Source of the DNA: Escherichia coli
GTDB lineage: Bacteria; Pseudomonadota; Gammaproteobacteria; Enterobacterales; Enterobacteriaceae
Reading direction: 5' to 3' (one strand)
Assembly: GCF_003334405.1 (NCBI RefSeq)
Contig: NZ_QOWM01000021.1
Length of the DNA stretch: 53,345 nt
The notes beneath the pieces are model-generated. The model did no database searches. It worked only from the letters and a program-made list of their open reading frames with translations, and was not told where the DNA came from. Position 1 is the stretch's first letter. Each line of letters starts with the position of its first letter. Position numbers and translations under genes: made by a program. Below, in pieces: positions 1 through 44,600 of this stretch.

Positions 1-93
1 CCGCCGGGAGCGGATTTGAACGTTGCGAAGCAACGGCCCGGAGGGTGGCGGGCAGGACGCCCGCCATAAACTGCCAGGCATCAAATTAAGCAG

Positions 94-121
94 AAGGCCA
101 TCCTGACGGATGGCCTTTTTG
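94..121 (+). terminator. rRNA-operon distal (T2-type) intrinsic terminator; bases 1-121 are the 3' flank of an rrn operon
   Basis: Hairpin GGCCATCC-tgac-GGATGGCC (96-115) followed by TTTTT (116-120). Bases 1-121 match from memory the rrnB T1-T2 spacer/T2 sequence carried in expression vectors (ccgccgggagcggatttgaacgttgcgaagcaacggcccggagggtggcgggcaggacgcccgccataaactgccaggcatcaaattaagcagaaggccatcctgacggatggccttttt). Confidence 0.75.
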
Positions 122-140
122 CATTGGCGCAGAAAAAAAT

Positions 141-176
141 GCCGGATGCGACGCTGGCGCGTCTTATCCAGCCTAC
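141..176. repeat. REP (repetitive extragenic palindromic) element
   Basis: gccggatgcgacgctggcgcgtcttatccagcctac matches the REP/PU consensus family seen repeatedly in this window. Confidence 0.5.
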
Positions 177-182
177 TCTTGC

Positions 183-710
183 TTATCCGTTCTGCTTTTG
201 CATCCACTCCACCACAAAATCAGCCAGCCCCTCAACATCATTAATATCCAGTAATGCGACATCAAGATTAAGCGGCACATCACTGGCTACAGCAATAACA
301 TGCCTGTCTATCACTAATTCTTCAGGTCGATGTCCGGCTCCATCGCGAAACAGCACAATCTTTGCGATCTCTTCATGCTTAAACCCTTCGACCAGAATCA
401 AATCCAGCTTTGAGGTATCCATTCGACTTGCGAGAAACTGTAGATCCAGCTCTTCTTCGTCTGGTGTTTCCGTCATCAAGGCCCATCGTTGCTGGCTGGC
501 AACGATGGTTTGTGCCGCGCCAGCCTTGCGCAGCTCATAGCTATCTTTGCCTGGCTTATCAACATCCATATCATGGTGCGTATGCTTAATCAGCCCTGGA
601 CGGATCCCTCTGGCGCATAATGCCGGGATCAGTTTTTTCAAAAGCGTAGTTTTTCCGGTACCACTCCACGCGGCAAAGGCGAGTAACGGTATCATCGTTT
701 TTCCTGCCAT
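183..710 (-). CDS. mobB: Molybdopterin-guanine dinucleotide biosynthesis adapter protein MobB
   Basis: ORF translation has P-loop AWSGTGKTT and the MobB-like sequence [41 protein letters not shown]. Start may be the internal ATG at 695 (MIPLL), which would overlap the mobA stop. Confidence 0.9.
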
Positions 711-5879: not shown

Positions 5880-6109
5880 AGACAGTGCGCTAAAGAAGCG
5901 CAAGGCGCAGATTTTAGCAGAAAACGACCCAAATAACGGATGATCCTTAAGGAGAAAAATAATTCATATCTATCCACATTAGAAAAAATCCCATTATCTC
6001 AATTATTAGGGATGGATTTATTTTTAACTGCATGAAAAACAAAGACAAACATCATGCTGTAAAAAGCATGATAATAAATTAAAAGCGATGTAAATAATTT
6101 ATGCACAAA

Positions 6110-9029: not shown

Positions 9030-9175
9030 GATTCGCCTGAACATGCCTTTTTTCGTAAGTAAGCAACATAAGCTGTCACGTTTTGTGATGGCTATTAGAA
9101 ATTCCTATGCAACAACTGAAAAAAAATTACAAAAAGTGCTTTCTGAACTGAACAAAAAAGAGTAAAGTTAGTCGC

Positions 9176-9284
9176 GTAGGGTACAGAGGTAAGATGTTCT
9201 ATCTTTCAGACCTTTTACTTCACGTAATCGGATTTGGCTGAATATTTTAGCCGCCCCAGTCAGTAATGACTGGGGCGTTTTTTA
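9176..9284 (+). ncRNA. spf: Spot 42 small RNA
   Basis: gtagggtacagaggtaagatgttctatctttcagaccttttacttcacgtaatcggatttggctgaatattttagccgccccagtcagtaatgactggggcgttttttta matches the remembered 109-nt Spot 42 sequence, including the terminal hairpin CCCCAGTCAgtaaTGACTGGGG plus U-tract. Confidence 0.9.
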
Positions 9285-10312: not shown

Positions 10313-10556
10313 ATAGAGCGAGGACGCTAACAGGAACAATGACTCAGGATGAGGGTCAGGAGCGCCAGGAGGCGAAGACAGAGGATTGTCAGGAAGACAA
10401 ACGTCCGGAGACGTAATTAAACGGAAATGGAATCAACACGGATTGTTCCGGCTAAAGGAAAAACAGGGTGTGTTGGCGGCCTGCAAGGATTGTAAGACCC
10501 GTTAAGGGTTATGAGTCAGGAAAAAAGGCGACAGAGTAATCTGTCGCCTTTTTTCT
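10313..10556 (+). ncRNA. csrC: CsrC small RNA (CsrA-sequestering)
   Basis: About 244 nt starting atagagcgaggacgctaacaggaacaatgactcaggatgagggtcaggagcgccaggagg..., with about 14 GGA motifs (many as CAGGA), ending in hairpin GGCGACAGagtaatCTGTCGCC plus TTTTTT; lies between engB and yihI as expected. Confidence 0.85.
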
Positions 10557-10623
10557 TTGCTTGCTTTCTGTTAGATTCCGCCGCAAATCTATACTGAATA
10601 AAACGGCTAAAAGACGAACCATT

Positions 10624-41610: not shown

Positions 41611-44600
41611 TTACACCTTTTCCACATTCACAAGGAAGGACTTAAACTCCGGCGTCTGCGTGTTCGCATCACCAACGAATGGCGTTAAAGTATTGGCAAT
41701 AAAGCCTTTTTTAGCTACGCCTTCATAGCCCCAGTGAATCGGAATACCGATGGTATCGATATCTTTGCCGTTCGCTTTCAGCGTGCGAATACGTTTGGTC
41801 ACCACCGCTTTGGCTTTGATATAGCCACGGTTGGAGGAGACTTTCACGGTATCGCCCTGGGCAATGCCAAGTTTATTCGCCAGCGACTCCCCGATTTCCA
41901 CAAACTGCTCTGGCTGCAAAATCGCGTTCAACAGCGCGTGTTTGGTCCAGTAGTGGAAGTGCTCGGTCAGACGATAGGTGGTTCCGACATACGGGAACTT
42001 ATCGGCTTTACCCAATGCTTCGGCGTCGTCTTTAAAGATACGTGCAGCCGGGTTCGAGATAACGTTTGGATGCAGCGGGTTAGTTCCCAGCGGCGTTTCA
42101 AACGGCTCGTAGTGTTCCGGGAACGGACCTTCCGCCATCTTATCGAGGGCAAACAGACGCCCCATGCCTTCCTGCTGCATGATAAACGGCCCGACGCCGC
42201 TACCCGGAGGCGCTGCGCTGTAGTCCGGAATATCCCAGCCGGTCCACTTAGTGCCGTCCCATTTCAGCAACTGACGCTTCGGATCCCACGGGTTACCCTG
42301 CGGATCTGCGGAGGCGCGGTTATACAGAATGCGGCGGTTAAGCGGCCATGCCCATGCCCAGCCCAGCGTGTTACCGAGGCCAGACGGATCGGCGTTATCA
42401 CGGCGTGCCATCTGGTTGCCTTCCGGCGTCCAGCTACCGGCGAAAATCCAGCAGCCACAGGAGGTTGTACCGTCATCGCGCAATTGGGCGAACGAACTAA
42501 GTTGTTGGCCTTTCTTGACGATAACCGCACCGGTTGCCGGATCGGTAATATCGGCCAGCGCCTTACCGTTGCTCTCCATCGCCACTTCTTCTGAAGATGG
42601 CTCATGCGGAATGGCGTAGTTCCATGTCATGTTCAGCACCTGGTCCGGGTTCGCGCCACCCTGTTCGGCATACATCTTGCGCAAGCGCAGGAAGATACCG
42701 GAGAGGATCTCGCCGTCAGTCAGCGCAATCCCCGGGGCGTCCGCACCTTTCCAGTGCCACTGTAACCAGCGACCTGAGTTAACGATAGAACCGTTCTCTT
42801 CCGCGAAGCAGGTCGATGGCAGACGGAACACTTCGGTCTGGATCTTCGACGAGTCAACTTCGTTCAGCTCACCGTGGTTCTGCCAGAAGTTAGAGGTTTC
42901 AGTGTTCAGTGGGTCGATGGTGACGAGGAACTTCAGTTTCGACAGACAACCGATCACTTTGTTTTTGTTCGGGAATGAGGCAACAGGGTTAAAGCCCTGG
43001 CAGATATAGCCATTGACCTTGCCCTCTTTCATCATCTCGAAGTATTGCAGGACGTCGTAGCCTTTATCCCACTTCGGCAACCAGTCAAAGCCCCAGCTAT
43101 TTTCCGCCGTCGCTTTATCACCAAAGAAGGCCTTCATCATAGAGACGAAGAATTTCGGGTAGTTGCCCCAGTAGTTTACCTGGCCTTCCAGCAGCGGTTT
43201 TGGCGTGTTGGCGGTAAGGTAGGTTTGCAGATCGGTCTGCTTCTCGCTTGGCAGCGTCATGTAACCTGGCAGGCTCTGCGACAGCAGCCCCAGGTCCGTC
43301 AGCCCCTGAATATTGGAGTGACCGCGCAGGGCGTTAACGCCGCCGCCTGCCATCCCCATATTGCCGAGCAGCAGCTGGATCATCGCCATCGTACGAATGT
43401 TTTGCGCACCAACGGAGTGTTGCGTCCAGCCGAGGGCATACAGGAACGAGGCAGTTTTATCGTGAGCACTGGTTTCTGCGATGTATTCGCAGACTTTCAG
43501 GAACGCGTCTTTTGGCGTACCACAGATGTTTTCAACCACATCTGGCGTGTAGCGGGAAACGTGCTGTTTCAGCAAGTTCCACACGCAGCGCGGATGTTGC
43601 AGCGTGGTATCGCGTTTGGCGAAGCCGTTTTCGTCCAGTTCATAAGTCCAGGAGGATTTATCGTACTTGCGTTTTTCCGCGTCGTAGCCGGTGAACAGGC
43701 CATCTTCAAAGCCGTAATCCTCACGCACGATCAGGCTGGCGTTGGTATAGGCTTCGGTGTATTCGCGGTTGAATTTTTCATTGTTCAGCAGGTACAGCAA
43801 TACGCCTGACAGGAAAGCAATGTCAGTACCGGAACGAATAGGGGCATAGTAGTCAGCTACCGCCGCCGTACGCGTAAAGCGAGGATCGATCACAATCAGC
43901 TTCGCGCCGTTGTGAATTTTGGCTTCCATCGCCCAGCGGAACCCGACCGGGTGAGCTTCAGCGGCGTTACCGCCCATCACCACGACGAGGTTGGCGTTCT
44001 TGATGTCGACCCAGTGGTTGGTCATCGCACCGCGACCAAATGTTGGAGCAAGACTTGCTACCGTTGGTCCGTGTCAGACACGCGCCTGGTTGTCGACCGC
44101 GAGCATACCCAGCGCGCGGGAGAATTTTTGCGTTAAATAGCCGGTTTCGTTACTCGACGCGGAAGCACACAGCATCCCGGTGGAGAGCCAGCGGTTAACA
44201 GTCACGCCTTCGGCGTTTTGCGCAATGTAGTTAGCATCGCGGTCTTCTTTCATCAGTTTGGCGATGCGATCAAACGCCTCTTCCCAACTGATTTGCTGCC
44301 ATTTATCAGAACCTGGCGCACGGTATTCCGGAAACTTCAGACGGCTTTCGGAGTGGATGAAATCCACCAGGCCAGCGCCTTTCGGACAAAGTGCACCGCG
44401 GTTGACCGGGTGATCCGGATCGCCTTCGATATGGAAGATAGATGCTTTGGCGTTTTTTGCTCCGTCACCGAGGCTGTACATCAACAGCCCACAGCCTACG
44501 GAACAATAGGTGCAGGTATTACGGGTTTCGCGGGTGCGCAGCAGTTTATACTGCCGGGTTTCCGCGAGTGCTACGCTGGGTGCAAAACCCAGTGCCGCTG

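Follow-up and report, generated by a model that had tools for sequence, protein, structure and literature searches.

The start of a K-12-like Escherichia coli contig as the distal end of the rrnA operon, with the 3' part of rrA and the terminator T2

The window analysed here, a stretch of 53,345 nt from Escherichia coli (contig NZ_QOWM01000021.1), opens with 121 nt (CCGCCGGGAGCGGATTTGAACGTTGCGAAGCAACGGCCCGGAGGGTGGCGGGCAGGACGCCCGCCATAAACTGCCAGGCATCAAATTAAGCAGAAGGCCATCCTGACGGATGGCCTTTTTG) that were predicted to be the spacer and T2-type terminator following 5S rRNA in E. coli rrn operons. This raises the question of which operon ends here, and of what its tail consists. The first 121 bases were compared with the 3' flanks of all seven rrn operons of MG1655. 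The rrnA and rrnB flanks match them at 121/121, at an offset of 208-328 from the 5S start, and the rrnD flank, taken after the second 5S gene (rrfF), is 94.2% identical. In the other operons the match is confined to shorter parts: to 69-121 in rrnG (94%), where it directly abuts 5S, to 69-93 in rrnC and rrnH, and to 69-88 in rrnE, the parts in the latter three consisting of the 5S 3' end and trailer. By megablast, bases 1-121 match 4363 of 5426 complete E. coli genomes, 3941 of them at full-length cover (E = 6e-56). The match is far beyond chance, and the sequence is specific to dual-terminator operons rather than to rrn operons generally. Hence, the original prediction of a post-5S spacer with a T2-type terminator is borne out by the identity to the rrnA and rrnB flanks and by a T2 hairpin in the folds; the description as typical rrn sequence holds for rrnA, rrnB, and rrnD of K-12 and fails for the other K-12 operons.

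Identity of rrnA and rrnB extends to base 122, and the two diverge from base 123. The end of the 121-nt segment therefore lies close to their divergence point, and since bases 1-122 are the same in both operons, the anchor to rrnA is the sequence from base 123 onward, namely a REP element and mobB. The claim that the segment fixes the genomic position of the window thus stands through this downstream sequence, whereas the 121 nt alone leave rrnA and rrnB indistinguishable. The features of this end of the window are as follows.

1-89, plus strand: 3' part of rrA (RrA sRNA; a 5S-linked tRNA-linked repeat), 100% identical to MG1655 rrnA
1-17, plus strand: stem-loop 1, read from the sequence and cut by the window start
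21-35, plus strand: stem-loop 2 (CGTTGC, loop GAA, GCAACG), present in the minimum-free-energy fold
35-45, plus strand: core motif GGCCCGGAGGG of the tRNA-linked repeats (TLRs), with the counterpart GGCCCGAAGGG in the tyrT TLRs
46-66, plus strand: stem-loop 3 (T-GGCGGGC, loop AGGAC, GCCCGCC-A), present in the minimum-free-energy fold
69-86, plus strand: 18-bp direct repeat AACTGCCAGGCATCAAAT, an 18/18 match to the rrfA 3' end and trailer
92-120, plus strand: T2 intrinsic terminator of rrnA, as judged by the folds, identity to rrnB T2, and a T-run at 116-120
141-175, no strand assigned: single REP element separating T2 from the stop codon of mobB
183-710, minus strand: mobB, an open reading frame annotated in matching genomes and convergent with rrnA

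Downstream of the segment follow mobB, mobA, yihD, srkA, dsbA, yihF, yihG, and polA; the locus is therefore rrnA, as given by mobB, mobA, yihD, srkA, dsbA, and polA. In matching genomes, the upstream order is hemG, 16S, tRNA-Ile (ileT), tRNA-Ala (alaT), 23S, and 5S, which agrees with the expectation of an rRNA operon immediately upstream. In one matching genome (locus L001), the mature 5S rRNA ends at 5913 and window base 1 falls at 6001, about 87-88 nt apart. A 1400-nt query is 100% identical in K-12 strains, and the window is colinear with MG1655 from 4,040,724 at an identity over 99.9%. It carries 6 mismatches in the first 38.4 kb and a 437-bp deletion compared with MG1655; the source is therefore K-12-like and not MG1655 itself. 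Taken together, bases 1-121 are almost certainly the distal end of the rrnA rRNA operon of a K-12-like E. coli, and nothing contradicts this identity.

The same 121 nt were also described as the rrnB terminator of cloning vectors, and this equivalence is correct: the rrnB T1-T2 fragment, among the most used vector terminators (PMC8144298), is identical to them, and it is carried by pMQ and pAK51, small bla/ColE1-type records among sixteen matching plasmid records. In these two, 5S-T1-spacer-T2 has rrnB-specific flanks, with 207 nt on the left and 17 nt on the right exact to rrnB and not to rrnA. A contaminating or engineered vector fragment as the source of bases 1-121 would fit the 121/121 match to rrnB T1-T2 and its presence in small bla plasmids, but has a negligible probability against the unbroken run into the rrnA-specific REP element and mobB, the divergence from rrnB and vector sequence at base 123, the 1-260 junction in 1172 genomes, and the colinearity of the whole window with MG1655; vector contamination is ruled out by the contiguity with mobB.

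A start of the window behind rrnB, rrnD, or rrnG would likewise be compatible with the identity of rrnA and rrnB over 1-122 and with the close likeness of 69-170 to the rrnG tail. The genes that follow, from mobB and mobA through yihD, srkA, dsbA, yihF, and yihG to polA, nevertheless make such a placement extremely improbable: murB follows rrnB, yhdZ follows rrnD, and kgtP follows rrnG. Compared with the rrnA copy, rrnB T1-T2 (Brosius et al. 1981, as cited in PMC8144298; pKK/pTrc-type vectors) has the same order of 5S, T1, spacer, 18-bp repeat, and T2, with the same T2 hairpin and loop, and its part corresponding to the window is identical at 121/121. The copies split at base 123, rrnA leading into the REP element and mobB and rrnB into the murB leader; upstream of the window they differ at one position in the T1 loop (GGAA in rrnA against GAAA) and at one in 5S.

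The T2 hairpin has a core stem of GGCCATCC (96-103) with GGATGGCC (108-115) around a TGAC loop, and an AGAA/TTTT extension lengthens this 8-bp G+C-rich core to 12 bp, followed by TTTTT. The minimum-free-energy fold pairs 92-103 with 108-119, with z = -5.3 for bases 1-130, and the hairpin folded alone has -22.8 kcal/mol. It is identical in rrnB T2 and in the single terminator hairpin of rrnG. A consensus terminator scan of 1-121 on both strands called no terminator, because extension of the stem through AGAA/TTTT consumes the T-run—an artifact of the scan. For rrnB, termination efficiencies of 87% at T1 and 100% at T2 have been reported (Orosz 1991, as cited in PMC8144298). T2 appears to be the primary terminator of rrnA, since it is the sole terminator in strains lacking the cassette described below, and it probably shields the convergent mobB-mobA genes from rrn read-through. 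On the minus strand, bases 80-126 also form a T2 hairpin of -21.6 kcal/mol followed by UUCUGCUUAAUUU, which might allow T2 to end convergent mobA-mobB transcripts past the REP element as well.

The bases ahead of T2 are a spacer in that they lie between two terminators, the T1 hairpin (L001 5917-5960) being located upstream and outside the window. They are not anonymous, however, but constitute the described TLR and sRNA gene rrA (PMC8144298). In rrnA, rrnB, and rrnD, the T1-T2 interval is a member of the TLR family that encodes the sRNAs RrA, RrB, and RrF (Stenum et al. 2021, PMC8144298). K-12 carries 22 TLRs, and in each the terminal 18-19 bp duplicate the 3' end of the stable-RNA gene that precedes it (PMC8144298). 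The RNA ends were mapped for RrB (PMC8144298) and are transferred to the window by position: the 5' end of RrB is an RNase E site 3 nt past 5S, and its 3' end lies 3 nt past the repeated 18-mer (PMC8144298). On this basis, the 5' end of rrA is placed about 84 nt ahead of window base 1 and 3 nt past the 5S 3' end, and the long 173-nt form of RrA ends 3 nt past the 18-bp repeat at about window base 89. Window bases 1-89 are thus rrA itself (PMC8144298; Rudd 1999 as cited there), with about 89 of its 173 nt. Of the five GGA motifs, four fall in this 3' part, along with stem-loops 2 and 3 and the 18-bp repeat; the window start cuts off T1, the first GGA, and the 5' arm of stem-loop 1.

Stem-loop 1 consists of a 5' arm formed by AAAT (upstream of the window) and CCGC (1-4), the loop CGGGA (5-9), and the 3' arm GCGGATTT (10-17). 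The GGA motifs lie at 7-9, 12-14, 40-42, and 55-57, the fifth (the first in order) being located just upstream of the window. The 18-bp repeat comprises the last 13 nt of 5S rRNA (69-81) and 5 nt of trailer, and it recurs with a period of 168 bp (a 150-bp gap), in agreement with PMC8144298. At gathering thresholds, Rfam has nothing in 1-121—Rfam 15 is without a family covering rrA—and neither RefSeq nor PGAP has an annotation at rrA. When bases 1-130 are folded, GGCCCGGAGGG is paired with the repeated 5S 3' end, 36-38 lying opposite 77-79 and 40-43 opposite 71-75; this core motif is also similar to the 5' strand of helix I in 5S rRNA (GCCUGGCGG). Folds of whole repeat units favor a local GCCC-GAA-GGGU hairpin over this pairing.

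Because the repeat ends in 5S sequence, bases 1-81 could be read as the remnant of a second, degenerate 5S gene, decayed from a tandem like that of rrnD, which has two 5S genes; bases 69-81 are indeed the last 13 nt of 5S. This origin is very unlikely: the 5S covariance model (RF00001) has no match in window 1-400 at E values up to 10, in comparison with 90.5 bits for the genuine upstream 5S, and on this ground the reading was rejected. Moreover, the core of 1-68 is common with the tyrT repeats and has conserved hairpins of its own, and the same repeat construction also stands behind tRNA genes (PMC8144298).

As a TLR, the rrnA copy has the properties described for the family: it is placed directly after an rRNA gene of the same operon, its 3' end copies that of the upstream stable RNA (69-86 against rrfA, 18/18), and stem-loops 2-4 of PMC8144298 are conserved, as judged by covariation. 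The founding TLRs, the tyrT-tyrV/rttR repeats (RtT, RF00391), likewise follow a stable-RNA gene and end in its 3' end. The core GAACGTTGC..GCAACGGCCCGRAGGGTG is common to rrA and tyrT-tyrV at 27/32 identity over hairpin and motif (E = 8e-5 against a 950-nt target), and the stem-loop 2 hairpin recurs in the tyrT-tyrV repeat. The tyrT repeats differ from rrA in their flanking hairpins and in ending in the tRNA-Tyr 3' end instead of the 5S 3' end; RtT scores only below its gathering threshold of 45 here, at 19.2 bits (1-76, E = 0.26) and 17.0 bits.

RrB has a length of 173 nt, and a short form of 113-115 nt was found on Hfq (PMC8144298). Its half-life is about 2.5 min, and it binds Hfq and CsrA in vitro, the latter depending on GGA motifs (PMC8144298). 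CsrA binding is predicted for the 5S-linked TLR members only, and the 18-bp repeat was proposed to be an RNase E recognition element (PMC8144298). The published ends and binding were measured on RrB and not on the rrnA copy studied here. By analogy, rrnA transcription would mostly halt at T1, read-through of which amounts to about 13% of rrn transcripts in rrnB experiments (PMC8144298). RNase E would then cut the read-through transcripts past 5S and past the repeated 5S-like end, freeing RrA, and T2 would stop essentially all of the remaining polymerases and protect mobB-mobA. In this scheme, identity and anatomy come from the present analysis, and processing and binding from the literature on the identical rrnB copy (PMC8144298).

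Bases 1-89 might instead be a functionless spacer—a decaying or selfish repeat that recombination at the duplicated 3' end multiplies and deletes, with RrA as a processing by-product and T2 alone being of biological importance. Conservation of rrA and its distribution among strains bear on this possibility in opposite directions. Conservation was followed across GTDB species representatives by one scan with the pattern GGCCCGRAGGGN{15,40}CTGCCAGRCAT, which yielded 83 loci: 78 from Enterobacterales and 5 chance matches. The Enterobacterales loci range from Escherichia, Salmonella, and Citrobacter to Yersinia, Serratia, Rahnella, Erwinia, and Pectobacterium. Two types of repeat body occur. Type I resembles RrA and carries a GGA in the loop of both stem-loop 1 and stem-loop 3, and type II has different hairpins, AAAAGC-GAAA-GCTTTT and GAATCAC-AAA-GTGATTC. 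In an alignment of 68 distinct Enterobacterales sequences (A1), 88% of the cells of the three stems are paired, compared with 73% after shuffling and 33-42% after sliding, and 18 of the 22 stem pairs have changes on both sides, a signal that largely reflects the split between types I and II and hence few independent events. The pairing is highest in stem-loop 3 (98% of cells, with all 8/8 pairs changed on both sides), followed by stem-loop 2 (91%, with 3 pairs changed on both sides); the 76% of stem-loop 1 is an understatement, as the single MAFFT alignment puts the 5' arms of the two types out of register. Within type-I homologs, the arms of stem-loop 1 covary as CCGC/GCGG, GCGC/GCGC, TGGC/GCCA, and TCGT/ACGA. 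The covariation supports the rrA stems. Invariance of GGCCCGRAGGG and CTGCCAGRCAT in this alignment is set by the search pattern and is uninformative on their mutual pairing.

A hairpin and T-run lie 7-12 nt past the repeat in all 37 distinct type-I loci of other Enterobacterales. After type-II bodies comes a terminator (19 loci), tRNA-Thr (about 7), a tRNA-Asp leader (9), or other sequence (5); copies before distal tRNAs have a period of about 139 bp without a T1 hairpin, and end-of-operon copies one of 167-170 bp with it. The 18-mers are identical in 34 of 57 other-Enterobacterales loci, the remainder differing by a few bases. Some Escherichia carry a second, type-II 5S-linked repeat absent from K-12, namely E69, SCPM-O-B-8794, and E. 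whittamii (L077, L019, and L054). This copy lies between 5S and the tRNA-Asp leader in E. coli E69 and before tRNA-Thr in E. whittamii, in both cases without a T1 hairpin. In MG1655 rrnD (L006), a G-to-A variant, CCAGACAT, is found in the rrfF 3' end and in the repeated end of the TLR alike, with a compensating TGTCTGG in the rrfF 5' end; the repeat therefore follows the 5S variant. This pairing of variants recurs in Citrobacter loci with yhdZ downstream, and the rrnD and Citrobacter pairings may go back to a single old event.

Among E. coli strains, the picture is one of presence and absence. The variable unit is a 168-bp T1+rrA cassette, which corresponds to window 1-86 plus 100 nt upstream (L001 5919-6086), and it was counted in the 5426 complete genomes with queries whose 80% cover can be reached by cassette-bearing alleles alone. 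It is present at rrnA-mobB in 1172 genomes (21.6%; query: the 1-260 junction), at rrnB-murB in 2522 (46.5%), and at rrnD-yhdZ in 3245 (59.8%). Irrespective of locus, 3946 genomes (72.7%) have a type-I body, the median copy number being 2, and about 27% have none at megablast sensitivity; all these percentages carry the limits of that sensitivity and a sampling bias due to many K-12 laboratory strains and clonal pathogens. Most E. coli strains thus lack bases 1-68 at rrnA. In cassette-less alleles the match begins exactly at the 18-bp repeat and overlaps the annotated 5S gene, and in E. coli D2 the rrnA tail is the K-12 sequence with exactly one 168-bp unit left out. Over window 69-170 (5S end, T2, and REP element), the D2 rrnA tail is 100% identical, and the rrnG tail, at 94%, is the same sequence; neither rrnG nor cassette-less rrnA has the cassette or a counterpart of window 1-68. 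Since the stretch from T2 to the REP element recurs behind MG1655 rrnG, paralogy between the tails of rrnA and rrnG reaches past the terminator.

At rrnA of Nissle 1917 the cassette is missing too, and the hairpin that follows 5S is a different one. This hairpin (L010 401-460) is a hybrid terminator directly after 5S, its lead and tail being T2-like and its stem, GGCCCAGTC-GGAA-GACTGGGC, resembling the inner T1 stem. T1 and T2 have the frame CATCAAAT.AA.C..AAGGC...GCCTTT in common.

Outside E. coli strains of this survey, a TLR-family repeat adjoins mobB in eleven loci from ten genera of other Enterobacterales: Escherichia sp. MOD1, a Pseudocitrobacter MAG, Citrobacter portucalensis, Enterobacteriaceae bacterium UBA7338, Salmonella diarizonae, Pseudescherichia vulneris, Klebsiella indica, Enterobacter sp. 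JUb54, Serratia nevei, Rahnella victoriana, and Rouxiella silvae, the last two with a type-II body. For this reason, the cassette was likely lost from rrnA in most E. coli, which is the most economical reading. Its absence from many strains argues against an indispensable role of RrA, because about 78% of the complete genomes are without the cassette here and about 27% without any type-I copy.

A repeat devoid of function is well compatible with this clean presence/absence pattern, bounded by the 18-bp repeat at rrnA, rrnB, and rrnD alike, with the genomes having no type-I copy, with the absence of a PGAP annotation at rrA, and with the short half-life of the RNA and the modest, partly counter-intuitive phenotypes of RrA/B/F, for which deletion and overexpression act in the same direction (PMC8144298). 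It does not account well for the pairing of all three stem-loops, kept by compensatory changes across Enterobacterales genera, for the GGA retained in the loops of stem-loops 1 and 3 of type-I copies from Yersinia to Escherichia, for the repeat adjoining mobB in ten further genera, or for the requirement of GGA motifs in CsrA binding in vitro (PMC8144298). On balance, a mere by-product is a real possibility that falls short of being probable. The assignment of bases 1-89 to rrA holds irrespective of the use the cell makes of the RNA.

The remainder of the window contributes further observations. The naRNA4/BIME pair family (RF02564) matches 112-173 at 31.7 bits, below its gathering score of 59.5; this sub-threshold match is produced by the single REP element, the T2 hairpin standing in for the first stem. 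yiiE is lost through the 437-bp deletion, which lies at about window position 38,470 between fabY and yiiF; the deletion seems to have formed between short repeats (ATCTGGAAAACGCCTCGCAAAAA) that precede yiiE and yiiF. Gathering-level Rfam matches elsewhere are Spot 42, CsrC, naRNA4/BIME (three copies), ES222, STnc370, and the fdoG SECIS, at 9166-9284, 10313-10566, 12810-12887, 17495-17602, 19492-19560, 44021-44079, and 53158-53320. About 10 kb separate CsrC, a CsrA sponge, from rrA, the RNA of which is likewise bound by CsrA in vitro; the proximity is probably coincidental.

The T1-T2 region, the TLR family, and the sRNAs RrA, RrB, and RrF are all already known, and the finding at the window start is correct but ordinary. 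It anchors the window at rrnA-mobB, at about 4.04 Mb in MG1655 coordinates, and marks the K-12-like strain as a bearer of the rrA cassette there; the repeat-rich rRNA sequence just upstream of the window serves as a warning. One modest addition is the population data, which show that E. coli can do without the T1+rrA cassette and that its copy number varies across the species. Prior reports of this strain polymorphism were not found in the literature searched, which covered few subscription journals and is weak evidence in this respect. The cassette appears to be an accessory module gained and lost via recombination at the 18-bp repeat. That it is recombination-labile and no constant component of rrn operons, with insertion or deletion precise at the duplicated 18-bp 5S end and 0 to 3 (or more) copies per strain, is a tentative proposal and, as it stands, a rather doubtful one. 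A still more speculative idea is that the 3'-end homology carried by TLRs could allow the whole family to spread from one stable-RNA operon to another. The variability of the cassette bears on the routine use of the same fragment as a vector terminator and on the in vivo role of RrA/B/F, a question raised in PMC8144298. If the proposal is true, the dosage of RrA/B/F, and with it any tuning of CsrA tied to rRNA synthesis, would be a strain-variable trait of E. coli.
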